DNA from: Escherichia phage AV108
Sequence record: OR352938.1
Reading direction: 5' to 3' (one strand)
Length of the DNA: 64,000 nt
The notes under the pieces were generated by a model. The model saw only the letters and a program-made list of their open reading frames with translations. It was not told where the DNA came from and searched no databases. Shown in pieces: positions 15,439-27,983 of the stretch. Both the position numbers and the translations under genes were made by a program. The first letter of the stretch is position 1; each line of letters begins with the position of its first letter.

Positions 15439-15915
15439 TTAATCATGACCGTGATTTGCAATGTCCGCTCGCGTCTTATCTTTGTGATTTCCTACGTCAA
15501 AGACACGATAACCATTTTCACGCAAAACTTTAATCACTTCTGGGTTATCCTCAAAGACTCCGACAACTTCATCTTTATCAAAGGATTTAATTACCTCTAA
15601 TTTGATGTGATAGTCTTTACGGGAATCGGTACGGCCTCTCATAAAGATTTTATCAAAACACACCCCGTTAGAAATTAACCAATCAATTGTTTCCATGTAA
15701 GCATGTGAACTTCGTCCGGTGAGGATGTAAATCAAATGCCCGTTGTCGGAAAGAGCATTAATAACACGAATTACATCGTAAATGGGGGAATCTCCCCCAC
15801 ATGCCTTGTTATATTCGATCCATGACTCGACTTTATCAAGATTTTCGGTTGGCATCTTTGCTAGTCGATGTGTTGGATCTGTGATCGTAAAATCTAAATC
15901 GACAAAATATATCAT
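15439..15915 (-). CDS. HAD-superfamily phosphatase-like protein
   Basis: N-terminal DxDxT motif (VDLDFTIT) and small size. Confidence 0.5.
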   Translation of the reverse strand: MIYFVDLDFTITDPTHRLAKMPTENLDKVESWIEYNKACGGDSPIYDVIRVINALSDNGHLIYILTGRSSHAYMETIDWLISNGVCFDKIFMRGRTDSRKDYHIKLEVIKSFDKDEVVGVFEDNPEVIKVLRENGYRVFDVGNHKDKTRADIANHGHD

Positions 15916-17078
15916 AGATATTTCCCGAATCGGTTGTAGTCGTCATCTGTTAAATCGGTATTAACCTGAGATACCAGATACATAATCTCTACTTCCTGCG
16001 CTGCATTCTGTACTTCGTCAGAGTTCAACCATTTACGCATCCACGGTAACGGATGACGACGAACACTAAACGGGCTTTTCAGTCCGGCAGCACGCATACG
16101 GGAATCTGCCAGGTATTCTACATAGGTTTTCAGAATTTCCGGTGACAGGTTAGGAATTGCCCCCATTGCGAATAGGTGGTCTACCCATTCTTTTTCTTGC
16201 TCGACAACATCCAGAAAGATTTTCGTTGCTTCGCCTTCAAGTTCTTCCGCAATCTGTTTCCACTCATCACCATCAACCCCCGTTTGCCATTGACGAATAA
16301 TGTATTGTGTGCCTTTTAAGTGAAGTTGTTCATCACGCGCAATAAATTTCATGATCTTCGCGTTACCTTCCAGTAAACCACGTTCGGCAAAGCTGAAAGT
16401 ACATGCAAAGGACACATAAAAACGAATTGCTTCCAGTGCATTGACGCAGTGTGCACACAGATAAATCGAAGCCATCAGATCTCGTTTTGTATCTTCAAAA
16501 AATCTTCTTGCATCATCTAATGCTGTCTGGTCGTCTCGTTCTTCCCAATAGCGGAGATCTTCTTTTGCATTCTCATACTTACGAATCCAATAAAGAACAT
16601 CATCATAATATTTCCCGATAGATTCCGCTCGCTTCATGATAGCAGGGTTATCGATGATCTGGTCGAACTCACTAGCCGGATCAATGAAACAGTTACGCAT
16701 AATGTGTGTATAGCTTCGGCTATGAATCGTTTCGCTGAATGTCCATGTTTGCAACCATGTATCGAGAGTTGGATCAGATACAATTGGACCAAATGCTGCG
16801 GACGGTGCGCGACCTTGAATAGAATCAAGTAATGTCTGATACTTCAAGTTTTCAGTAAAGAAACGCTTTTCAACGTCACCCATATTAAGATATTGAATAC
16901 GGTCGGTTGCAAGTGAAATTTCTTCGGGGCGCCAAAAAAATGACAGAGATTTTTCAATTAGTTCTTCAAATACTTGATGACGCTGAATGTCATAACGAGC
17001 GATACCTAAACCGCTACCCAGAAACATCGGTTCATTCATAATATCAACGTGTTCACGATTAAATACCGTATTTCCCAT
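15912..17078 (-). CDS. nrdB: ribonucleotide reductase small subunit
   Basis: collinear with T4 NrdB as recalled (VDIMNEPMF, ARYDIQRH, FFWRPEE); uninterrupted ORF, so no intron. Confidence 0.9.
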   Translation of the reverse strand: MGNTVFNREHVDIMNEPMFLGSGLGIARYDIQRHQVFEELIEKSLSFFWRPEEISLATDRIQYLNMGDVEKRFFTENLKYQTLLDSIQGRAPSAAFGPIVSDPTLDTWLQTWTFSETIHSRSYTHIMRNCFIDPASEFDQIIDNPAIMKRAESIGKYYDDVLYWIRKYENAKEDLRYWEERDDQTALDDARRFFEDTKRDLMASIYLCAHCVNALEAIRFYVSFACTFSFAERGLLEGNAKIMKFIARDEQLHLKGTQYIIRQWQTGVDGDEWKQIAEELEGEATKIFLDVVEQEKEWVDHLFAMGAIPNLSPEILKTYVEYLADSRMRAAGLKSPFSVRRHPLPWMRKWLNSDEVQNAAQEVEIMYLVSQVNTDLTDDDYNRFGKYL

Positions 17079-17753
17079 TCACATATTCCTCATTTTACAG
17101 TTATCAAAGTGCCATCGTAGAGCATTGCCTTTATTGGTAATTTTACCGCAATGCGGACAAGGATCTGCCACTGTTGCTTCCTTTGTCCTTTGTGCAATCA
17201 GCTTTATCATTTCCTCGCTATGTGGTATTCCTTTAGTTGGCGATGGTTTCCCAAACATAGGATTTTTACTTCCCATTCTAGCTTTTGAAATGTTTAACGC
17301 GTGCTCCTTTGTTTTTGGCTTACGCATTTTAGCTTTTGTCTCTTCTGATTTCAACACACCTTTCGAAGATTCGCTAATCTTTCTTCGCGTTTCTTCTTTC
17401 ATCGGCTTGCCCTTTCTTTGTTCAGAGATAAGTACCCTAGCTTGTTCATATACCCTAGACGAAACAATATAATCTCTTTTATTGGTCTTCGCATTTTTTG
17501 CTAAACACATCATACCAAATGCTTGTGCCATAGGTCCACCATGAATTTTTGCTAGCAGATGATGAATCACGAAATGTTCTTTTGCTGTCAAATCAATCAG
17601 GTTATCAACTTCATCACCGCCACCCATAGATCTCGGTAAAATATGATGTGTTTCCTTATATCCTTCAACGGTTCCTCTTATCTTTGCTTTTTCTATGATT
17701 GCGTCATGTAATTTTTGTAAGTTCATGAATAAATCCTCGTTTCTGTATACCAT
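17079..17753 (-). CDS. mobE: HNH homing endonuclease (MobE-like by position)
   Basis: HNH core THHILPRSMGGGDEVDNLIDLTAKEH; C-terminal basic repeats and CPHCG zinc knuckle; inserted between nrdA and nrdB exactly where T4 carries mobE. Confidence 0.6.
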   Translation of the reverse strand: MVYRNEDLFMNLQKLHDAIIEKAKIRGTVEGYKETHHILPRSMGGGDEVDNLIDLTAKEHFVIHHLLAKIHGGPMAQAFGMMCLAKNAKTNKRDYIVSSRVYEQARVLISEQRKGKPMKEETRRKISESSKGVLKSEETKAKMRKPKTKEHALNISKARMGSKNPMFGKPSPTKGIPHSEEMIKLIAQRTKEATVADPCPHCGKITNKGNALRWHFDNCKMRNM

Positions 17754-18032: not shown

Positions 18033-20276
18033 TTACAGCTTGCAAGATGAGCACTCGCTAGCGTCTTCCGTACCATCAGCACCGTCGCGAACGTTCGCAT
18101 AATACAGGGTTTTCAGACCGTAATATTGAGCAAACAACATATCATCTAACACATCAGCAATATCGACTTTACCAGTCTTATAAGTGCTTGGATCGTATGA
18201 TGTATTGGAACTAATCGCCTGATCCACAAACTTCTGCATGATCGCTGCCAGTGTCAGATAAGGCTTGTTACCTTTCTTGATCAGTGTCCAAAGCAGGTCA
18301 ATAACATCAGCATTATTCTCTACGTTCGGAATAACCTGATTAAATTGCCCTTCTTTCGATCCTTTAACCGATACAATACCGCGAGGCGGTTCAATACCGT
18401 TTGTGCTGTTAGATACCTGAGAAGACGACTCACAAGGCATCAGAGCCGAAAGCGTACTGTTACGAATGCCATATTTTTTCAGGTCTTCGCGCAGTTCTTC
18501 CCAATCCATCTCATATACCGGATCAACCAGTTCATCTACTGTCTTTTTGTACCAGTCGATAGGCAGTTCACCGCGTCCATAACGTGTTTCGTGCATCAGT
18601 TCGCAAGCACCCTTCTCTTTAGCCAGTTGCACACTAGCCTTAATCAGAGCATATTGCAAGCGTTCAAACGTTTTATGCGTAAACTCGTTAGCGTCTTCAT
18701 ATGTGAAGAAATTATCCGCGAGATACGATGCAAAGTTAGTCACCCCAACACCCAGAGAGCGACGTTTTTTGGATGTCAGAGCTTGCTCTACAGGATAATC
18801 CTGGTAATCTAACAGGTTGTCAAGTGCACGCACCATAACCATAGCAATGCGTTCTACTTCTTCCATATTTTCGATATCAAAGTTTCCTAAAACATATGCT
18901 GCCAAAGTACATAGGCTGATCTCTGAATCATCACGACCCATCGGTTTTGTAGGCAGAGCAATTTCACAACACAGGTTGGATTGTTTAATCGGTGCTACAT
19001 TACGAATAAACGCCCCGTGATTGTTCATGTTGTCTGTGAACGTTGGGTAGATTCGACCAGTGTTAAAACGTTCAATTGCCACCGCTAAAAACAGGTCTTC
19101 GGCTTTAACACGAGTTTTACGAACACTCGGATCTTTTTCCAGTTTTTCGTAAAGCTGGCGGAAACCTTCCTCATCTCGGAAGTATAGATCCCACAACAAG
19201 CCACCTGCAACATCTGGACTAAACAGAGTAATGTAATCCCGTTTAAGGAATCGCTCTACCATCAGGTTATTAATCTGTACGCCGTAATCAAGATGACGAA
19301 TGCGGTTATCTTCCACCCCCTTATTGTTCTTTAACACAATCAGACTTTCAAACTCTAAATGCCACATTGGGTAATAGAGAGTCGCCGCCCCGCCACGAAT
19401 ACCGCCTTGTGAGCATGACTTAACGGCAGTCTGAAAATGTTTCCAGAATGGGATAACGCCAGTATGACGAACTTCACCATGCCCGATCTTAGATCCTTCC
19501 GCGCGAATCATGCCAGCGTTGATACCGATACCAGCACGCTTGCTAATATACTTGATGATTGCATTTGCTGTTTCGTTGATGCCCTGCAATGAGTCATCAC
19601 TTTCAATCACCACACACGAACTAAATTGGCGTGTTGGGGTACGCACACCTGCCATAATCGGAGTAGGCAGAGAGATTTGCTTATTCGCAACAGCATTATA
19701 AAAATCAATCACATGTTCAAGTCTATTTTCGGTCTCTTCTTGATGCAAGCACATACCGATCAGCATATACGCAAATTGCGGTGTTTCGATGATTTTCTTA
19801 GTGCTGCGATCCTGAACAAGATATTTCTCTTTTAACTGCATCGCACCAGCATAGGTCATTTTAAAATCAAGTTTATGGTCGATGAATTTCTCCAGATATT
19901 CCACTTCTTCACGGGAATACTTTTGCAGAATTTCGCGATCATATTTTCCGATTGCAATATTACGCTCAATATGGCTATAAAAATCAATAGGTTGGAATTG
20001 ACCGTATACTGATTTACGAAGCGCGAACATTGCAAGGTTACTTGCTACATATTGATAATCGGGTGTTTCTACCGTGATGTTATCTGCGGCGACCTTAATC
20101 AATACTTTCTGGATATCATTGGTAGACATACCTTCTGTCAGAAGTGGTTCAACCATATCAAACAATTCATATGGATCAACGTTATGACCTTCGGCTGCCG
20201 CTTCCAGAATTTTCATTACTTTTTCTTTTTCAAACGGAACAGTCAGACCGGAAGACTTAACAACATTTTTAATCAT
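18033..20276 (-). CDS. nrdA: ribonucleotide reductase large subunit
   Basis: 747 aa, long identical blocks to T4 NrdA as recalled (GVIPFWKHFQTAVKSCSQGGIRGGAAT, NSTLSALMPCESSSQVSNSTNG). Confidence 0.92.
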   Translation of the reverse strand: MIKNVVKSSGLTVPFEKEKVMKILEAAAEGHNVDPYELFDMVEPLLTEGMSTNDIQKVLIKVAADNITVETPDYQYVASNLAMFALRKSVYGQFQPIDFYSHIERNIAIGKYDREILQKYSREEVEYLEKFIDHKLDFKMTYAGAMQLKEKYLVQDRSTKKIIETPQFAYMLIGMCLHQEETENRLEHVIDFYNAVANKQISLPTPIMAGVRTPTRQFSSCVVIESDDSLQGINETANAIIKYISKRAGIGINAGMIRAEGSKIGHGEVRHTGVIPFWKHFQTAVKSCSQGGIRGGAATLYYPMWHLEFESLIVLKNNKGVEDNRIRHLDYGVQINNLMVERFLKRDYITLFSPDVAGGLLWDLYFRDEEGFRQLYEKLEKDPSVRKTRVKAEDLFLAVAIERFNTGRIYPTFTDNMNNHGAFIRNVAPIKQSNLCCEIALPTKPMGRDDSEISLCTLAAYVLGNFDIENMEEVERIAMVMVRALDNLLDYQDYPVEQALTSKKRRSLGVGVTNFASYLADNFFTYEDANEFTHKTFERLQYALIKASVQLAKEKGACELMHETRYGRGELPIDWYKKTVDELVDPVYEMDWEELREDLKKYGIRNSTLSALMPCESSSQVSNSTNGIEPPRGIVSVKGSKEGQFNQVIPNVENNADVIDLLWTLIKKGNKPYLTLAAIMQKFVDQAISSNTSYDPSTYKTGKVDIADVLDDMLFAQYYGLKTLYYANVRDGADGTEDASECSSCKL

Positions 20277-20344: not shown

Positions 20345-21577
20345 TTATACTGCCATTTGAGCGGTGATCGCTGGATGGCTTTGATAGTTGTGAATTTTAA
20401 AGTCTTTCGGAGTCTTTGTCAATACCTCATCTAAAGATTTAAATTCCGGCAACTCAATTGTTGGTTTATCAAACGGAACACGGCTTAACTGTTCCATAAC
20501 TTGATCAAAGTGGTTTTTGTAAATGTGAGTATCTCCACCAGAGAAAATCAGTTCTCCTACCTCAAGATCACACATTTTCGCTATGATGTGAGTTAACAGC
20601 GCATAGCTGGCAACATTAAAGGGCAAGCCCAAAAAGCTGTCTACGCTTCGCTGAAACCACATACAAGACAGTTTACCTTCATTGACGTAGAATTGCACGA
20701 AAGGATGACATACACCCAATACAGCATTATGTGTTCCTTGTACGTTCCATGAGTCAATAATGATCCGGCGATCCGTTGGATTGTTTTTAATTTGTTCAAT
20801 CACGTTTTGTAACTGGTCTTCCCAAATCTTCGGGCGATAGACATATTCTTCATCGTCTTTAGTGCTCGATGTGTCTACGTCCATACTAGCAAAGATCGTG
20901 GTATCTGGTGCTAAAATATCCCCACCCAGATAATCACTATCAAGTAGATAACCGAAATAACCATCATCTACCCATTCCTGGAATCCCCACAAGCAATATG
21001 CATCATTAACAAAATTAGATTGAGTCTTCCAGTGATCTGCTACTAAGAATTGATTATATTCAGAATCAAACTCTTCATAACGCATACCACGCCAGATAGC
21101 ACATAAACGGTCTTCTGTGTCGTTGGTTGGCGTAAAGTCTTCTACCCACGGGTGCTTAAATGTATGTGCATATTTGCTCTTAACGCGCTTAATTTTGATT
21201 TCACCGTGTGGATGAATCGGTTTGCGTCGCCATGCCATACCATACATATTGCCGACATTATAACCATTGAATCGCAAAGGATTCTTTTCTTTCATATCAA
21301 GACAGTTGCCGCGCCAAATGTCGAAGGCTTCTTCGTCAAACTTACCGCGTGTAATTTCCTGTAAGCGACGGCGGTCAAGTGATCCCTCCATAAACCATAG
21401 CAATTCGCCAATTACAGAGGCTGTAGCCATCTTTTTAGTGGTCAGTAATGGGAAACCCTTGCTTAAATCAATTCGCATCTCTGCGCCGAATTTAGAGAGC
21501 GTACCTACCCCCGTGCGGTCTTCACGAGGCCAGCCATTATCAAGAACATCACGCAACAGTTTCAAATATTCTTTCAT
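20345..21577 (-). CDS. td: thymidylate synthase with a large internal insertion
   Basis: TS motifs DRTGVGT, RRIIIDSWNV, CHPFVQFYV, GLPFNVASYALL, GGDTHIYKNH; about 115 extra residues between YGMAWR and EDQLQNV; continuous frame. Confidence 0.88.
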   Translation of the reverse strand: MKEYLKLLRDVLDNGWPREDRTGVGTLSKFGAEMRIDLSKGFPLLTTKKMATASVIGELLWFMEGSLDRRRLQEITRGKFDEEAFDIWRGNCLDMKEKNPLRFNGYNVGNMYGMAWRRKPIHPHGEIKIKRVKSKYAHTFKHPWVEDFTPTNDTEDRLCAIWRGMRYEEFDSEYNQFLVADHWKTQSNFVNDAYCLWGFQEWVDDGYFGYLLDSDYLGGDILAPDTTIFASMDVDTSSTKDDEEYVYRPKIWEDQLQNVIEQIKNNPTDRRIIIDSWNVQGTHNAVLGVCHPFVQFYVNEGKLSCMWFQRSVDSFLGLPFNVASYALLTHIIAKMCDLEVGELIFSGGDTHIYKNHFDQVMEQLSRVPFDKPTIELPEFKSLDEVLTKTPKDFKIHNYQSHPAITAQMAV

Positions 21578-21905: not shown

Positions 21906-22487
21906 TTACGCCTTCTTACGTTCTAAAATTTGTTCGCTGATCAGGTAATCATCAAGGAAGTAATTATGTTCTTCTTTTGTTGTAAAATCAAAATATAATT
22001 CCTGAATCATTTCCTTAGAGATGCCAACATCATATTCAAACGGATCATTAATTCCTGATCGTTGAACATACGTTAACACAATACGGTCCGCAAAGTCAAC
22101 TGCTTTTTCAATCAGGGAAGGTCCGCCAATAACGCTTACCAAACCTTGCAATTTCTCTATGACTTCTAATAATTCCTTCAATCCACCATCATTAGTAATC
22201 GCGGTATACACATCTGGTTGGTCGCCGTTTTTTGCTTTCGGTGCTGGCTTACTGGTATCGGTGCTAACAACCACATTCACACGACCTTCCAGTGCTTTAG
22301 GGAGACTTTCAAAGGTATTACGTCCCATTACAACCGCCGCAAGATCAACATCTCCCATAGTGCGCATTTTAAAGTTTTCCATGTCCTTTTTGATTGGACG
22401 TCCCCACGGTAAACCGCCTTTAAAACCAAAAGCCCAATTTTCATCTGACATTTTAGTGTCACCAATCGCAAATACACATTGAATCAT
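21906..22487 (-). CDS. frd: dihydrofolate reductase
   Basis: DHFR N-terminal pattern (FGxxGGLPWG) and frd-td-nrdA order as in T4. Confidence 0.85.
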   Translation of the reverse strand: MIQCVFAIGDTKMSDENWAFGFKGGLPWGRPIKKDMENFKMRTMGDVDLAAVVMGRNTFESLPKALEGRVNVVVSTDTSKPAPKAKNGDQPDVYTAITNDGGLKELLEVIEKLQGLVSVIGGPSLIEKAVDFADRIVLTYVQRSGINDPFEYDVGISKEMIQELYFDFTTKEEHNYFLDDYLISEQILERKKA

Positions 22488-22502
22488 AATATAAATCTCC
22501 CA

Positions 22503-22832
22503 TCAAATCAGTTTGAAATAGTTTTCGTTTACATTTTCTTCTGTGATTGCTGTCTTAAATTCTTGACCGTTATCCTGTGTGATGAAATAACGGTCAGAAT
22601 AATCACGAAAACGTTTTAAGTGAGATACCCCAACATTAACACCATTTTCCCAGAAACGAAAGGTAATCATTTTTGGTTCATATCGATAGTCGCTGGTTAA
22701 CACAGTACCATCCCCGCGACGGGCTTCATAAACCGTAATACATTCACGATTAGCGGCTTTAAGGCATTCTTCAATAGTGCCGCACGAGATAATACTTACT
22801 TTTTCATCTACGATTTGTTCTACAGTCCACAT
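22503..22832 (-). CDS. hypothetical protein
   Basis: ORF track 22503..22865; the promoter 22864-22891 overlaps that start, likely start ATG 22830-22832 with GAGAGG RBS. Confidence 0.45.
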   Translation of the reverse strand: MWTVEQIVDEKVSIISCGTIEECLKAANRECITVYEARRGDGTVLTSDYRYEPKMITFRFWENGVNVGVSHLKRFRDYSDRYFITQDNGQEFKTAITEENVNENYFKLI

Positions 22833-22863
22833 AATATAATCCTCTCTTTGTTTCGATATGTGC

Positions 22864-22891
22864 ATTATACACTATTGCGTTACGCTGTCAA
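22864..22891 (-). promoter_or_regulatory. sigma70-type early promoter
   Basis: tgtcaa 22886-22891 and attata 22864-22869. Confidence 0.45.
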
Positions 22892-24058
22892 CTCTTTTTC
22901 AAAAGATTTTACGATATACATGATGGTGCTCAATTCGGACGGCGCTACTGTCTCTGTGTAGCCATCCGGCATATCTTCTTTCGAGATATAGGAAGTTTTA
23001 CCTTTCATTACTTCCTTGATTTTGTTCTCTAATTCTAAGATCTTTTGACCGTCTTGTAAAGTCAATTCATAAAAGATCTCATGATCGAACTTTGAAACAC
23101 GAGATTGGTTTCTCATGCGCTCATGTGTTTCTTTGTTTGTTATTCCAAATTTCACGCCAACAAAGGAATCATTGTTGGTTAATTTCTGTATATAAAGAGT
23201 TCCTGTCTTTAATGCCTGATAACCATGCTTAGAACACAACGGGCAGCGTGTTCCGCGATTAACAAAATTATCAATAGTTACATCCCATTCATGGTTACGT
23301 TCGCATGTCAGAAGTATTCTTGTTAATGCACCTTTCCACTTTCCTGAAATCCCAATAAATTTTAGTCTGTTGGTTTCGCATATTTTTTCAATTTGTTTTA
23401 ATCGGTCACTTTTTGTTATTGGTGCTGTTCCGCTACATTTGCGACACCGACGACCTAGTTTGAACTTATCATAACTTTGTTCGTAAATGTGATTATTAGG
23501 ACACTCAAATTTAAGTTTAGTTTTTGTTCCTCTCCATTCCCCAATTATACCCAAAAATTTATAATCTCCTTTATTTTCATTTATATAAGATAAGGAATCT
23601 TCTTTATCATGCATCTTGCCCCCGTTACATAAAGGACATCTTGTTTTTTGATGAATGAAATCTGTATATGTTGGTTGGTATGTGTGTCCGTTTGTACAGT
23701 TCATAATGAGTCTTGTTCTGCTATTTTTATACTCCCCACCAACAAAACCAACAAATACATCGTTTGTTTCTTGTTTTATTCTTTCTATCACATTGTTTGG
23801 GTTTAATCTTTGAGAATCAACCACACATTTCTTACACGAAACGTTTTTCCTGATATTTGCTAGAGTTGATGTGTATTCATGCTTGTTATTACATAATATA
23901 AGAGCTTTTGTTTTGAGACCAGACCATTCTCCAACAAACCCCATGAAAGAATAACCAACTTCCAAACATGAATTTTTTACAACATTTTCCCAATAGAAGG
24001 GAGTTTTCGTGTTTCCTTTTATTTCTATACTAATCTCATGTGCTTGACGTACTAACAT
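22880..24058 (-). CDS. four-repeat Cys/His module protein with a GIY-YIG-like C-terminal segment
   Basis: four tandem modules of about 65 aa of form F-x-G-(F/I)-x-G-(E/K)-(W/Y)-x(4)-(T/R)-x(4)-C-x(2,3)-H-x(14,15)-C-x(2)-C; C-terminal LYIQKL-N9-VGVKFGIT; start taken at ATG 24056-24058 with GGAGGA RBS; ORF track to 24103. Confidence 0.5.
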   Translation of the reverse strand: MLVRQAHEISIEIKGNTKTPFYWENVVKNSCLEVGYSFMGFVGEWSGLKTKALILCNNKHEYTSTLANIRKNVSCKKCVVDSQRLNPNNVIERIKQETNDVFVGFVGGEYKNSRTRLIMNCTNGHTYQPTYTDFIHQKTRCPLCNGGKMHDKEDSLSYINENKGDYKFLGIIGEWRGTKTKLKFECPNNHIYEQSYDKFKLGRRCRKCSGTAPITKSDRLKQIEKICETNRLKFIGISGKWKGALTRILLTCERNHEWDVTIDNFVNRGTRCPLCSKHGYQALKTGTLYIQKLTNNDSFVGVKFGITNKETHERMRNQSRVSKFDHEIFYELTLQDGQKILELENKIKEVMKGKTSYISKEDMPDGYTETVAPSELSTIMYIVKSFEKELTA

Positions 24059-24088
24059 ATTTTTATCCTCCGTTGTTTCGATGATTGT

Positions 24089-24116
24089 ATTATACATTAC
24101 CACATCAGCATGTCAA
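24089..24116 (-). promoter_or_regulatory. sigma70-type early promoter
   Basis: tgtcaa 24111-24116, attata 24089-24094. Confidence 0.45.
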
Positions 24117-24142
24117 TACATTTTCATAAAATTTTAGGCAAT

Positions 24143-24168
24143 AAAAAAAGCCTTCCCGAAGGAAGGCT
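24143..24168 (-). terminator. rho-independent terminator after gene 32
   Basis: hairpin AGCCTTCC-cgaa-GGAAGGCT followed by a U-run on the minus-strand transcript. Confidence 0.65.
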
Positions 24169-24178
24169 TTAAAATTCA

Positions 24179-25147
24179 TTACATCCCTAACAGAGCGTCA
24201 AGATCATCCAGATCAGAAGCGGAGGAAGTACCGCCACCCAGGTCCAGAGATGCCATCAGGTCATCAGCGGAAGAATCTAACGCCGTGCTAGCTGCGTTAA
24301 TACCAACTACAGTGCTAGCTGCGGTAGTACCAGCGTCGAATGCATTCATCTGTGCGTCAAAATCATCAAGCTGGCTGTTAATCGCTGCCGCAGCACTGGA
24401 AGCCGCAGCACCAGCTACCATAGAAACGCCCATAGTTTTCTTAAATTTGGTTTCCAGTTCATCGAACGGTTTAAACTGGCTAGGCGCTACAATCTCACTC
24501 AGATCAACCATGTTTTCCATCAGATATTTCTGATATGCTTCGTCTTCAATTTTCGGAAGCTGTGATTGCTGCATGAAACGAGAATCATCATAGTTCTGGT
24601 GTTTATCAACCTTCTTAGCTTTCAGGAGGAAGTTAGCACCGGAGAACACACAAGTTACATCTACCGGAACTTCGCCCATGTCGGTATTCACGTTCACCAT
24701 TGCAACGATCTTATCATAAATTTTCTGACCGAAGCGGAATTTGAATACCTTACCTTCATTTTCTGGTGCTTGAGGATCTTTCAGTACCAGAATGTTTGCG
24801 TAGTAAGACGCTTTACGCTTAATCAGTTGCCATTCGGTTTTATCGGTATTGTATAGGTCTTTTTCGTTAATATATTTGCACACAGGGCAAGAATCAAAAT
24901 CACCGTGGGTGCTGGAGCAGTTTTCCCAATACCATTTACCATTAACTTTGAAGGAATGGTTTACCAGTTTCACAATCGGCAGACCGTCTTCTGTCTTAGA
25001 CGGCAGGAAGCGAATCAGGGCTTCACCGTTACCTGCTGCATCAGTCTTAATCTTCCACTCTTTCGGATCTTCTTTGGAGAAACCGTTGCCACCTTTCAGT
25101 GCGGCCAGTTGAGCTTGTAGTTTGGAAGAATCTTGGCGTTTAAACAT
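24179..25147 (-). CDS. 32: single-stranded DNA-binding protein
   Basis: collinear with T4 gp32 as recalled ([40 protein letters not shown]); Ala/Ser/Asp-rich acidic tail; start at MFKRQ (25145-25147). Confidence 0.92.
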
Positions 25148-25207
25148 ATTCACTATTCCTTCTTTTGATTGATTTACTAGACTATTATACAGATTTAAGT
25201 TTACTTG

Positions 25208-25888
25208 TCAACTATTTGTTTCTGCTTTTAATTGAGATATTTCTTTACACTCTTTAACTACTTTAACAAATAATGCTCTTGCTTTTGCGGCGTCAATAAC
25301 AAGTAGTTTCTTGTACGCCTTCATTTTAACACTATAAGTTTGCCAAATCAAGTCTTTGGCTACCTTGTCGTGTTCGTCGATTATATTTAGAAAGCTATCT
25401 AACAACATAAACGACTCAAACGATATAATCCGATTTTGCAGTAGTTTAAAGATACCGCTAGTTTCGGTTGCGGGATTATATGTAATTAGCTCTTTAAGAG
25501 TAACCCCGCGTTTCTCTGAGAAGTATACAAGACTTTTAATGTCATCGTCAAATCGTGTTGCCGCATCAGTGATTTTACCGATGTACTCCATGTAAAACCC
25601 GTATGCGTCAACATCGGTGATTTCACCTACCCATGCATCGGTATTAGCTACCAGATTGCTTAAGAATAGGAAGTATAATTCTCTTAGATTGTACTTTTCC
25701 GCTAATTTTGCGAAATAATACTTATCTCTGCGTTTATTGAATGCGGCATCAGACAACCGCATCCTCCAATTGTATTTTACGCAATCATAACGCCCGTTCA
25801 TATGAGCTTTCATCATGCAATATAACATATACACAGATTTAGCATTAATTCGCATATCTGGATCTGGAGGAAGACGGTTTCTGATCAT
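25208..25888 (-). CDS. 59: helicase loader
   Basis: collinear with T4 gp59 as recalled (KSVYMLYCMMKAHMNGRYD, KYNWRMRLSDAAFNKRRDKYYF, IISFESFMLLDSFLNIIDEHD). Confidence 0.9.
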   Translation of the reverse strand: MIRNRLPPDPDMRINAKSVYMLYCMMKAHMNGRYDCVKYNWRMRLSDAAFNKRRDKYYFAKLAEKYNLRELYFLFLSNLVANTDAWVGEITDVDAYGFYMEYIGKITDAATRFDDDIKSLVYFSEKRGVTLKELITYNPATETSGIFKLLQNRIISFESFMLLDSFLNIIDEHDKVAKDLIWQTYSVKMKAYKKLLVIDAAKARALFVKVVKECKEISQLKAETNS

Positions 25889-26425: not shown

Positions 26426-27025
26426 TTAACCCTCTTTCGTCATTAATTGAAAACCACGTTCAGCTTTTGAAATTTCGCTAGGACTTAAATCGTCACCAAC
26501 ATATTCTAGCATCATTTCTCGGATAATGTCAAGTGCTTTTTCATCACCTGATTTTAACTCGAACTCAAGTTCATAATGAGCAGTGTTTCCCAATCCTTCG
26601 CCTACTTTGCCATAATAGAAAGTGTCTTTGCACATTTCCACTATACCACAACCCATATCTAGAGTCAATGACTTGCGATATGTCATTACTTGCATTATTG
26701 CAGTGATATAGTCGGAGTTTACCCCTAGACTATCAATAAAATGGACGAACTCATCCCAATTTGAAAATGTCATTTCCTCGCGGTTGAATAGTCCAGATTC
26801 ATTATCACCCATTTTGACCATGATCTCTGATTTTCTACAGTCAAGTCGTGCATAAATTCCTTTTTGACGTAGCGCATGATCTTCGGTATCATAATAAAAT
26901 TCGTGTTTTAATATGTTATCTCGGTCTAAGAGATTGTACCCGTCATACATTGCCACCCACAAATCACAGATGGTTTCGACGCCAATTTGTGAGTGTGCAT
27001 AGTATTTTAATTCAAGTTCTTTCAT
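26426..27025 (-). CDS. CYTH-like (triphosphate tunnel metalloenzyme) domain protein
   Basis: N-terminal ExExK (MKELELKYY), later R-rich segment and ELEFELK acidic pair; length about 200 aa. Confidence 0.4.
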   Translation of the reverse strand: MKELELKYYAHSQIGVETICDLWVAMYDGYNLLDRDNILKHEFYYDTEDHALRQKGIYARLDCRKSEIMVKMGDNESGLFNREEMTFSNWDEFVHFIDSLGVNSDYITAIMQVMTYRKSLTLDMGCGIVEMCKDTFYYGKVGEGLGNTAHYELEFELKSGDEKALDIIREMMLEYVGDDLSPSEISKAERGFQLMTKEG

Positions 27026-27035
27026 GTGTCAACCC

Positions 27036-27983
27036 TTAGAACTCACCAATTTTCTGTAACATTTTAACTAACGCATTTGTTACAAAATAGTTATAAATTT
27101 TACCGCGTGGTGCTGGTTTAGATTTTTCCCATGCTAACAAAATTTCATATTCGATGTTATCAGGAATAAATTCAAAATCAATAAGTTCGCGGTTTTCGTC
27201 AAAGCGTCGTGCTTCTTCCTCTGTCATCAAAGACTTTGGATCTTCGGCATCGAAAATTTGCTCTAACCATTTGGTTGCAATTGGTTTAGCTCGTTCTCCT
27301 TCCAGTCGTGAGATAATGAAATCACTACGGCACTTGATAGAAGCTACACCGTCTTTTGCGTCACCCTTAACACATTTTACCATAAGGTCTTTGTAAGGGC
27401 TACCATATTTGCATTTCTTCCACGCTTTCTGTACTGGCGACCACTGTTTCACGTTTTTGTATTTGTGCAACTGTGTGTAGTCACCATCGCCGGAGTTGAT
27501 TAGCACCTGGCGACCTTCTACAGAAAACTTTTTAGTTAATACAGCGATTATATCATCCGCTTCAACTTTGTCAACCTTAATAACGTGATAAGGCATGTTC
27601 TCTTTAAACTCTTCGGTGATCTTATTGATCGCAGCAAAGATCATCTCCCAATCACGCGGATCTGCGTCTCGTTTTTCTTTACGGTTGCGTTTATAGTAAG
27701 GTGCGATATCACGTCGCCAGTAACCTTTGCTTGAATCAAAGGCAAGTACCGTAATTGGGTATTGCTCTTTGAATTTTGTCATATTATAACGCATGGTGTC
27801 AAGGATAAGATGACGGATCATACCTTCATTAATAGGATCTTCCGGTTTAAAGGTATGTGAGATAGTAGCAATCATAAGCTGCGACATATCAATCAAATGC
27901 ACACCTTCCGGCAGTTTATCTTCTGGATCATCGAAGAAATCATTAAGTGTAGCGGTCGTTTTTGTAAATGGGTTATACGTCAT
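27036..27983 (-). CDS. rnh: RNase H / flap endonuclease
   Basis: collinear with T4 RNase H as recalled (GYWRRD, YYKRNR, VEADDIIAVL, DGDYTQLHKYKNVKQWSP, PRGKIYNYF). Confidence 0.85.
   Translation of the reverse strand: MTYNPFTKTTATLNDFFDDPEDKLPEGVHLIDMSQLMIATISHTFKPEDPINEGMIRHLILDTMRYNMTKFKEQYPITVLAFDSSKGYWRRDIAPYYKRNRKEKRDADPRDWEMIFAAINKITEEFKENMPYHVIKVDKVEADDIIAVLTKKFSVEGRQVLINSGDGDYTQLHKYKNVKQWSPVQKAWKKCKYGSPYKDLMVKCVKGDAKDGVASIKCRSDFIISRLEGERAKPIATKWLEQIFDAEDPKSLMTEEEARRFDENRELIDFEFIPDNIEYEILLAWEKSKPAPRGKIYNYFVTNALVKMLQKIGEF

Follow-up and report, generated by a model that had tools for sequence, protein, structure and literature searches.

Homing endonuclease genes (HEGs) that combine a T5orf172 nuclease domain with CapR repeats form an already published class (Netter 2021; Barth 2023; PMC10448857). 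Its members include ICP1 gp174, gp165, gp121, gp53 and gp130, together with genes of T5-like, Plateaulake and VpaJT-like phages (Barth, Dunham & Seed 2023, PMC10448857). In these proteins, repeated CapR, DUF723 or DUF4379 fingers form an N-terminal array ahead of a C-terminal nuclease; the genes are free-standing, adjoin essential genes, vary in presence, occur as frameshifted copies and swap domains between alleles (PMC10448857). T4 itself carries no T5orf172 genes (PMC10448857), and a text search of the same paper found no mention of RB49 or Krischvirus. Homing by a T5orf172 HEG is a matter on which our literature search found no demonstration for any member (PMC10448857). Hef of phage U5, considered as a possible family member, gained no support from the literature search.

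Two of the constituent modules have been characterized biochemically. CapR of PLE (Netter et al. 2021, PMC8096241), the namesake of Pfam family PF21817, is a single DNA-binding protein of ~15.5 kDa that represses the capsid operon; its conserved cysteines are required for DNA binding, as Cys-to-Ser mutants lose binding in EMSA (PMC8096241). ICP1 Odn (Gp88; Barth et al. 2021, PMC8263062) carries a C-terminal T5orf172 nuclease that cleaves DNA in vitro, an activity abolished by E180A; among T5orf172 proteins, sequence-directed dsDNA cleavage has been demonstrated for Odn alone, as has metal-dependent cleavage. Odn is a domesticated, non-homing enzyme, unlike the role proposed below. PeSL cassettes, known from phages RB49, phi1 and JSE, are a further point of comparison. 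In these promoter-early stem-loop cassettes (Arbiol et al. 2010, PMC2839356; Comeau et al. 2014, PMC4122927), strong early promoters bracket the cargo with a terminator upstream, homology between alleles stops in the interval from the -10 box to the start codon, and close relatives differ by insertion, deletion and replacement.

Gene context and expression signals

Escherichia phage AV108 (OR352938.1) is an RB49-like (Krischvirus) T4-type phage, a lineage unlike those of the T5orf172 HEGs described in PMC10448857. The window analyzed here is a 64-kb stretch of its DNA. Within this window, the ORF at 22880..24103 (minus strand, as are all domain and signal coordinates below) encodes 407 aa if begun at GTG. 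The likely start is the ATG at 24058-24056, preceded 7 nt upstream by a strong Shine-Dalgarno motif, GGAGGA (24066..24071). From this ATG to the TAA at 22882-22880, the CDS (22880..24058) encodes a 392-aa CapR-repeat/T5orf172-type endonuclease, matching the length given by an earlier sequence-only reading, and the same 1179-bp CDS is annotated in GEC-3S. The gene lies just downstream of gene 32 (24179-25153), with frd (21906-22487) on the other side and one 120-aa ORF (ORF120, 22503-22865) separating it from frd. The resulting order is 59 - 32 - nuclease gene - ORF120 - frd; the earlier placement between gene 32 and frd thus agrees with the ORF map, with ORF120 also present in that interval.

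A promoter scan identified an early sigma-70 promoter of the nuclease gene at 24089..24116 (TTGACA, 16 nt, TATAAT). It matches the consensus at 12/12 positions, is annotated as a promoter in GEC-3S and is kept in phage KMB43, in which the site is empty. Between this promoter and gene 32, a terminator scan found an intrinsic terminator stem-loop 3' of gene 32 (24147..24170; AAAGCCTTCC-TTCG-GGAAGGCTTT followed by a T run), also a terminator according to the GEC-3S annotation, which forms the stem-loop half of a PeSL-type element upstream of the nuclease gene. A second perfect sigma-70 promoter (22864..22891; TTGACA, 16 nt, TATAAT), found by the promoter scan and likewise annotated in GEC-3S, overlaps the 3' end of the nuclease gene, including its last codons and stop, and is predicted to drive ORF120. 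In a three-way alignment with the upstream copy and the KMB43 empty site, it and the promoter-leader stretch 5' of the gene form a direct repeat whose copies have diverged.

Orthologues 98.8-100% identical to the 392-aa protein occur in GEC-3S, GoldenSnicker, G37-3 and Makalu_001. The protein matches phrog_681, 'endonuclease' (E 2e-100), which is also the RefSeq label of the GEC-3S and RB49 orthologues. No paralogue was found in the 64-kb window by tblastn, and searches of NCBIfam and PADLOC with the protein returned nothing meaningful, and membership of a known defence system was rejected.

A four-finger array joined to a GIY-YIG-fold domain

Four modules with a period of ~65 aa, with ligand cores at residues 56-78, 121-144, 186-208 and 252-275, occupy the N-terminal part of the protein. 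The whole protein matches Pfam CapR (PF21817) in four stretches with a score of 102.5 bits, far above chance against a gathering cut-off of 24.2 bits, and scores 44.2 bits with DUF4379. Taken singly and delimited by repeat HMM envelopes, the modules match CapR as follows: module 1 (23822..23977; aa 28-79; ligands C56, H60, C75, C78) at E 1.9e-4 and 22.0 bits, slightly below the cut-off; module 2 (23624..23785; aa 92-145; C121, H125, C141, C144) at E 1.7e-6 and 28.5 bits; module 3 (23432..23587; aa 158-209; C186, H190, C205, C208) at E 6e-10 and 39.6 bits; and module 4 (23231..23389; aa 224-276; C252, H256, C272, C275) at E 8e-13 and 48.8 bits. Module 4 also scores 26.8 bits with DUF4379, and its AF2 model has a pLDDT of 83.8.

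Pairwise identity among the modules is 24-36%, and the ligand set C-x3-H...(14-15)...C-x2-C is kept in all four. An alignment of 100 repeats shows no variation at C55 and C58 and at least 90% conservation at C35. These ligands differ from the CxxC...CxC of the T5orf172 HEG fingers (PMC10448857) and of CapR (PMC8096241); the latter is a homologous zinc-finger DNA-binding module present there as a single protein, whereas here four modules are joined to a nuclease. The sequence-only reading had recognized four tandem Cys/His modules of about 65 aa, and each resembles this DNA-binding family. Its strict module pattern fits three of the four, as module 2 has an extra Gly, and its C-x(2,3)-H should read C-x3-H throughout. 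By homology, the four modules probably bind zinc and DNA.

The C-terminal nuclease domain (22883..23203; aa 286-392) is of the GIY-YIG-fold, T5orf172/MUG113 type. The AV108 sequence itself fails the Pfam cut-off for MUG113 (PF13455; E 0.1, 13.6 bits versus 22.3) and gives no match to T5orf172 (PF10544), a divergence that sets it apart from the published T5orf172 HEGs (PMC10448857). Its C-terminus aligns with those of the homologues P0043 (E 8.5e-26), which passes T5orf172 (23.2 bits versus a cut-off of 20), and P0052 (E 4e-21), which passes MUG113 (22.7 bits versus 22.3). Among the aligned homologues, 12 of 23 match T5orf172 and 15 of 23 match MUG113, with a best E of about 2e-5. Transitive sequence homology therefore assigns the domain, on these comparisons, to the T5orf172/MUG113 branch. 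The wider homologues were found with the full-length query, which was required for this purpose; when the query was cut to the C-terminal 117 aa, a word-indexed search returned only eight near-identical proteins.

Because a profile of the domain matched no PDB sequence up to E 10, a comparison of folds was needed. The AF2 model of the domain (pLDDT 94.6) has the order beta-beta-alpha-beta-alpha-alpha, that is, the beta hairpin, helix, strand and two helices of the GIY-YIG alpha/beta fold. This bears out the earlier description of the C-terminus as GIY-YIG-like, although the motif spacing is LYIQKL-N6-VGVKFGIT and not N9 as then given. Residues Y289, K303, F304, G305, R314, E344, G366, T368, E369 and T370 are invariant in the nuclease-domain family, and Y289, R314, E344 and E369 remain so across 23 diverse homologues with as little as 20% identity. 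Phe takes the place of the second GIY-YIG tyrosine (KFG). As in Odn, a C-terminal nuclease domain with conserved Arg and Glu is present (PMC8263062), and Y289, R314 and E369 and/or E344 probably make up the catalytic set of a protein expected to cleave DNA; E344 and E369 are both candidates for the counterpart of I-TevI E75 and Odn E180. Two outcomes had been named beforehand as counting against a modular-finger nuclease (neither a GIY-YIG nor a zinc-ribbon fold; a clear match to another family), and neither clearly emerged: a GIY-YIG fold is predicted, and the modules match CapR. The finger array and the GIY-YIG-type domain of that proposal stand; the architecture itself had already been published.

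Polymorphism of the slot beside gene 32

Our locus survey covered 58 Krischvirus records. The slot beside gene 32 is empty in five phages, holds an unrelated 109-aa ORF in ~24 records, and carries HEG alleles in ~28. KMB43 and JSE have the empty site, Makalu_003 the 109-aa cassette, and Phi1 and RB49 other alleles of the nuclease gene. The 109-aa ORF cassette is bracketed by the same flanks as the nuclease gene. Frameshifted copies occur in FL15 (+1 A) and in MIZ4, which has a frameshifted version of the Sf20 allele. The genomes bearing the alleles are otherwise ~95% identical.

Comparison of 34 alleles gives ~97% identity over the C-terminal 65 aa but a median of only ~34% for the finger arrays, which have two to six repeats each. 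Between alleles, no pair of modules exceeds 50% identity, which makes simple divergence of the arrays in situ unlikely; collinear orthology of modules between alleles was rejected on the same observation. Related phages thus bear dozens of finger arrays on one cutting domain at a single site, a feature that is new relative to the T5orf172 HEGs described previously (PMC10448857). The ~200-bp 3' conservation could partly reflect the embedded promoter and flank homogenization instead of selection on catalysis.

Boundaries of identity coincide with the gene. Between AV108 and GEC-3S, positions 22400-25400 (downstream ORF, HEG and gene 32) are 98-100% identical, and the frd and td windows are 75-87% identical; between AV108 and Skers, identity drops from 98% to 80-88% at the 3' end of the nuclease gene. 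On the 5' side, allele homology ends precisely in the interval from the -10 box to the ATG (24056-24061); the 3' exchange boundary among the alleles lies within the coding sequence of the nuclease domain and not at the downstream promoter. The slot is bracketed in PeSL fashion by recurring promoter elements: the stem-loop and a 12/12 promoter upstream, and a 12/12 promoter with the shared leader ATCGAAACAA downstream. At the downstream element, the terminator scan found no stem-loop. Bracketing early promoters with a terminator upstream, 5' allele boundaries between the -10 box and the ATG, and insertion, deletion and replacement among close relatives are all shared with the PeSL cassettes (PMC2839356; PMC4122927). 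Two differences are apparent: the PeSL cargo discussed there consists mostly of ORFans in hyperplastic regions, whereas the nuclease gene sits in the core replication-gene block, and a 3' boundary inside the coding sequence is unlike PeSL.

The locus also bears the signature of HEGs, with presence/absence polymorphism, degenerate copies, its own expression signals, an essential-gene neighbour and a mosaicism boundary at the gene. Free-standing position, N-terminal array, C-terminal nuclease, frameshifted copies and allele domain swapping are likewise common to this gene and the published class (PMC10448857). A search of flank polymorphisms for a target site identified none, junction differences being confounded by the variable gp32 C-terminus and promoter duplication.

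Proposed homing, possible cassette exchange and their meaning

We consider the gene, with a probability of roughly 0.7, to be free-standing and of HEG type, its product being a site-specific DNA endonuclease from the T5orf172 branch of the GIY-YIG superfamily. The CapR and nuclease-domain homologies, the phrog_681 match, the gene's own expression signals, the adjoining essential gene 32, the polymorphic slot, the frameshifted copies and the identity breakpoints at the gene support this assignment; the failure of the AV108 protein to reach the nuclease Pfam cut-offs, the KFG motif and the lack of an identified target site weaken it. On this proposal, the gene would be transcribed early from its own consensus sigma-70 promoter, and the four CapR-type Zn(Cys3His) modules would lie as beads on a string, jointly reading a long stretch of target DNA in a related phage that co-infects the cell and does not carry this allele. 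The C-terminal domain would then cut near the target, and recombination-dependent repair would copy the gene and adjacent markers, on the gene 32 and frd sides, from the carrier into the cut genome. Homing, and a target at such a location, are what we infer from these features. Since the promoter-flanked slot offers shared promoter and leader DNA 5' and nuclease-domain DNA 3', homologous recombination in these stretches could in addition move complete finger arrays from one genome to another.

Without any nuclease, PeSL-mediated recombination could also generate the observed pattern of presence, absence and replacement (PMC2839356). Possibly, though we think it unlikely, the gene is passive PeSL cargo encoding a competitive or defensive nuclease and moves or is replaced solely through homologous recombination at the promoter/terminator repeats on either side, in the manner of PeSL shuffling and mini-circles; it is similarly doubtful that the phage gains by cutting competitor phage or satellite DNA, in the manner of ICP1 Odn, and not by self-copying. 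The near-identical early promoter and leader repeats at both ends, with the stem-loop upstream, favour such an account, as do the crossovers of Arbiol et al., which map to the same -10-to-ATG interval (PMC2839356), the unrelated ORF between the same flanks, and the domestication of T5orf172 domains as anti-satellite nucleases (PMC8263062). The PADLOC result offers it nothing, however, the frameshifted copies in FL15 and MIZ4 and the empty sites speak against a strongly beneficial function, and an essential-gene neighbour with an identity breakpoint is typical HEG placement. The homing and PeSL readings are mutually compatible.

I-TevI, a homing endonuclease, also autorepresses, and it is conceivable but improbable that the finger array binds phage DNA, such as its own or neighbouring early promoters, to repress or tune transcription, with an inert C-terminal domain. 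The non-canonical KFG motif would fit such a role, and CapR is itself an HEG-derived repressor (PMC8096241). CapR lacks a nuclease domain, however, whereas the 392-aa protein retains one as its best conserved part, with Y, R and E residues invariant out to relatives of 20% identity; a regulatory target that stays fixed among 95%-identical genomes also fits poorly with hypervariable arrays. Still less credible, to the point of near-dismissal, is a Seg-type GIY-YIG enzyme that corresponds to T4 SegG in position and function. Both I-TevI and the T4 Seg proteins share the superfamily fold and a modular nuclease/DNA-binding design with the 392-aa protein, and Seg genes are also free-standing beside conserved genes, SegG adjoining gene 32. 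The T4 order is 59 - segG - 32 - frd.3 - frd.2 - frd.1 - frd, so the segG position is on the other flank of gene 32, and the synteny drawn in the sequence-only reading was off by one gene; in other Krischviruses, the true segG position holds an HNH gene. No sequence similarity was detected (hhalign against SegG and I-TevI gave probabilities of 0.2-0.3%), PF01541 did not match, and the DNA-binding modules are different. The reversed domain order noted earlier is real: the GIY-YIG domain of I-TevI is N-terminal (residues 3-90), and here the nuclease is C-terminal. Assignment to the Seg family is thus refuted, and survives only in the general sense of a GIY-YIG-superfamily HEG near gene 32.

Taken alone, the gene is an ordinary case of a published class, and public records already say 'endonuclease'. 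The locus is of wider use. Cultured coliphages exist for each state of the site (empty, alternative or occupied), which makes the locus a test bed for homing by T5orf172 HEGs, and dozens of natural arrays on an essentially identical nuclease domain make it one for DNA targeting by CapR-type arrays; in genomes ~95% identical, they amount to a near-ideal natural swap experiment. Should DNA reading by the CapR module prove modular and decodable, these proteins would form a naturally occurring set of programmable monomeric nucleases. The presence of a nuclease gene in a PeSL slot further connects homing with promoter-repeat shuffling, both of which have been proposed to drive T4-type genome mosaicism. 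On a speculative and rather improbable reading, the slot next to gene 32 serves the Krischvirus population as a library, in which the multi-zinc-finger arrays would be exchangeable and the T5orf172 nuclease domain constant. Its alleles (at least 34, with two to six modules and an array identity of about 34%) would target one another or empty sites, which would maintain the library and lead to reciprocal marker exclusion and HEG turnover, and new specificities would arise through recombination in the shared promoter and nuclease-domain DNA.

Domain architecture and class of the nuclease gene

AV108 belongs to the RB49/GEC-3S group of T4-type phages (Krischvirus), and GoldenSnicker, G37-3, Makalu_001 and GEC-3S are 95–98% identical to the window over 7 kb around the nuclease gene. 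All genes here lie on the minus strand, in the order gene 59 (25208–25888), gene 32 (24179–25153), the nuclease gene, a 120-aa ORF (22503–22865), frd (21906–22487), a small ORF and td (20345–21577). The ORF list places the nuclease gene at 22880–24103 with a GTG start (407 aa); the likely start, an ATG at 24058, 7 nt 3' of GGAGGA, yields 392 aa, and an identical 1179-bp CDS is annotated in GEC-3S. Upstream, also on the minus strand, are an intrinsic terminator (24170–24147) and a perfect promoter, TTGACA-16-TATAAT (24116–24089), while a second perfect promoter (22891–22864) lies across the gene's final codons and belongs to the ORF that follows.

The Pfam family CapR (PF21817) matches the protein in four stretches (E 1.4e-29), with a further match to DUF4379 (E 2e-11). 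Scanned separately, the modules match CapR with E values of 1.9e-4, 1.7e-6, 6e-10 and 8e-13, and each carries a ligand core of the form C-x3-H-x14/15-C-x2-C (residues 56–78, 121–144, 186–208 and 252–275). The modules share only 24–36% pairwise identity and are therefore old repeats rather than products of a recent duplication. Across a set of 100 non-redundant repeats drawn from homologues, the final two cysteines never vary and the first is conserved in at least 90%. For module 4, AF2 predicts (pLDDT 83.8) the topology helix-strand-strand-strand-helix, with the C/H pair at the turn between strands 2 and 3 and the CxxC after the second helix. In CapR, all four cysteines are needed for DNA binding (PMC8096241); by homology to CapR, the modules are predicted to bind zinc and DNA.

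The C-terminal sequence of the window protein alone gives a sub-threshold match to MUG113 (E 0.1), and a search of PDB sequences with this domain returned no match. Among 23 aligned homologues of the domain, T5orf172 is matched in 12 and MUG113 in 15; one homologous protein, P0043, scores above the T5orf172 gathering threshold and its C-terminus matches that of the window protein with E 8.5e-26. The AF2 model built from this alignment is confident (pLDDT 94.6) and runs hairpin, helix, strand, helix, long loop, helix. Residues Y289, K303-F304-G305, R314, E344 and G366-x-T368-E369-T370 are invariant, which fits the T5orf172 pattern of a retained arginine and glutamate; Odn, a member of the T5orf172 family, no longer cleaves DNA once it carries E180A (PMC8263062). 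No sequence relation to T4 I-TevI or SegG was detectable, and whereas I-TevI carries its GIY-YIG domain at residues 3–90, the nuclease domain here is C-terminal. The sequence-only reading, which described a protein of about 392 aa with four Cys/His modules and an only GIY-YIG-like C-terminus, is confirmed with small corrections.

That reading was right at its core and wrong on novelty: the gene belongs to an already published class. PHROGs assigns it to phrog_681 'endonuclease' (E 2e-100), RefSeq labels the GEC-3S, Phi1 and RB49 orthologues 'endonuclease', and the Skers orthologue is a 'putative GIY-YIG nuclease family protein'. The origin of CapR has been traced to N-terminal domains of putative T5orf172 homing endonuclease genes (HEGs) (Netter et al. 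2021, PMC8096241). Barth et al. (2023, PMC10448857) found at least one CapR, DUF723 or DUF4379 finger, often repeated, in 87% of 229 T5orf172 HEGs, and documented domain swapping among them; they noted that homing by these HEGs is not verified and that T4 lacks T5orf172 genes, and did not mention RB49 or Krischvirus.

Two nuclease slots beside gene 32

The sequence-only reading had also placed the gene at the position of T4 segG. The T4 order is 59–segG–32–frd.3–frd.2–frd.1–frd, so segG is found on the opposite side of gene 32, and this synteny does not hold. At the true segG position, between genes 59 and 32, Skers and MIZ4 carry a gene for an HNH endonuclease of ~198 aa (sequences L013, 8212–8808, and L004, 4849–5445), which is absent from that junction in the window (~25150–25210). 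Thus, two independent nuclease slots flank gene 32 in this phage group.

The slot between gene 32 and the 120-aa ORF is polymorphic. A 401-bp probe spanning the empty site of KMB43 matched 58 Krischvirus records: the slot is uninterrupted in five phages (KMB43, LF73P4, FL20, JSE and PHB13), holds an insert of ~380 bp in about 24 records, and is split by more than 0.7 kb, corresponding to a nuclease allele, in about 28. Those ~380 bp carry an unrelated 109-aa ORF without a Pfam match in place of the nuclease gene, as with Makalu_003 gene 239 (sequence L008, 615–944) in the slot that corresponds to window 22866–24058. Three metagenomic alleles that were examined, P0019, P0030 and P0035, lie in this slot too, in the order gp32–X–109 aa–DHFR–ThyA.

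The three slot states share their flanks: upstream, a terminator, TTGACA...TATAAT and the leader ATCGAAACAA(C)GGAGGA; downstream, the second promoter and ATCGAAACAAAGAGAGGATTATATTATG before the next ORF. These match the promoter-early stem-loop (PeSL) elements described for RB49, phi1 and JSE (PMC2839356), where ORFs are gained, lost or exchanged by recombination between the PeSLs on either side, with crossovers mapped to the interval from the -10 box to the ATG. On the 5' side, homology between alleles stops exactly at the ATG (24056–24061).

Mosaic alleles and other loci in the window

From the downstream flank, the DNA match of other alleles extends a variable distance into the nuclease gene, ending at about 23203 (Phi1), 23194 (RB49), 22988 (Sf20 and MIZ4) and several other points; the nuclease fold starts with the codon at 23203. 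Across the finger-array region (23204–24055), nucleotide similarity between alleles was undetectable. Among 34 full-length 90%-cluster representatives, median identity is 97% for the last 65 aa, 60% for the first 52 aa of the nuclease segment and 34% for the arrays; alleles range from 262 to 541 aa, with 2–6 modules. The window modules are each at most 50% identical to any module of other alleles and show no collinearity with them; the arrays thus seem to have arrived by import or exchange and not by divergence in situ, in agreement with the domain shuffling described by Barth et al. (PMC10448857).

Identity to GEC-3S is 98–100% at 22400–25400 and 75–87% in the frd and td segments, and identity to Skers falls from 98–99% inside the nuclease gene to 80–88% directly downstream; the gene therefore lies at a boundary of genetic exchange. 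The FL15 copy (sequence L007) is identical except for a single additional A in the A6 run at ~23389, which splits it into two annotated ORFs; this is incipient pseudogenisation or else a sequencing error in the homopolymer, and such an error could also explain the frameshifted version of the Sf20 allele in MIZ4.

In another mosaic patch, identity dips sharply at 26600–27199 (56–73% to Skers, 86–91% to GEC-3S), where an ORF (26426–27025, minus strand) has homologues recorded as adenylate cyclase, inorganic triphosphatase or CYTH-domain protein. In the 410-aa Td, only residues 1–117 and 254–410 align to T4 Td; the ~136-aa insert (residues 118–253), which matches no Pfam family, diverges more between close relatives than any other stretch (75% identity at 20600–20899 versus 98% in adjoining segments), and all Krischvirus td genes seen are of about the same length. 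Between nrdB (15912–17078) and nrdA (18033–20276), the position used by T4 for mobE, a 224-aa ORF (17079–17753, minus strand) contains two NUMOD3 motifs (Pfam E 7e-9) together with an HNH-like sequence, HHILPRS...DNLIDLTAKEHFVIHH, and has the appearance of a second free-standing gene of the homing-endonuclease type. Neither GEC-3S nor Skers aligns there; GEC-3S annotates three small ORFs instead.

Homing, PeSL recombination and function

The best-supported account is that the gene encodes an early-expressed site-specific endonuclease. The four-module zinc-finger array would pick out an extended target in a related phage infecting the same cell, the T5orf172 domain would cut nearby, and recombinational repair would then copy the gene and its flanks. 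The analysis itself establishes the domain identities, the fold of the nuclease domain, the expression signals, the polymorphism of the slot and the mosaic pattern of conservation; zinc and DNA binding, catalysis, the position of the target and homing are inferred. A search of the literature after Barth et al. (2023) yielded no demonstration of homing by a T5orf172 HEG. The chief alternative attributes the distribution to PeSL-mediated recombination alone and gives the nuclease a role in competition between phages or against satellites, like that of Odn; homing and PeSL exchange can coexist. That no other part of the protein is as well conserved as the nuclease domain makes a purely regulatory, nuclease-dead role unlikely. 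For a class already described, the added interest is modest, and lies in the allelic series at a single locus and its PeSL context.
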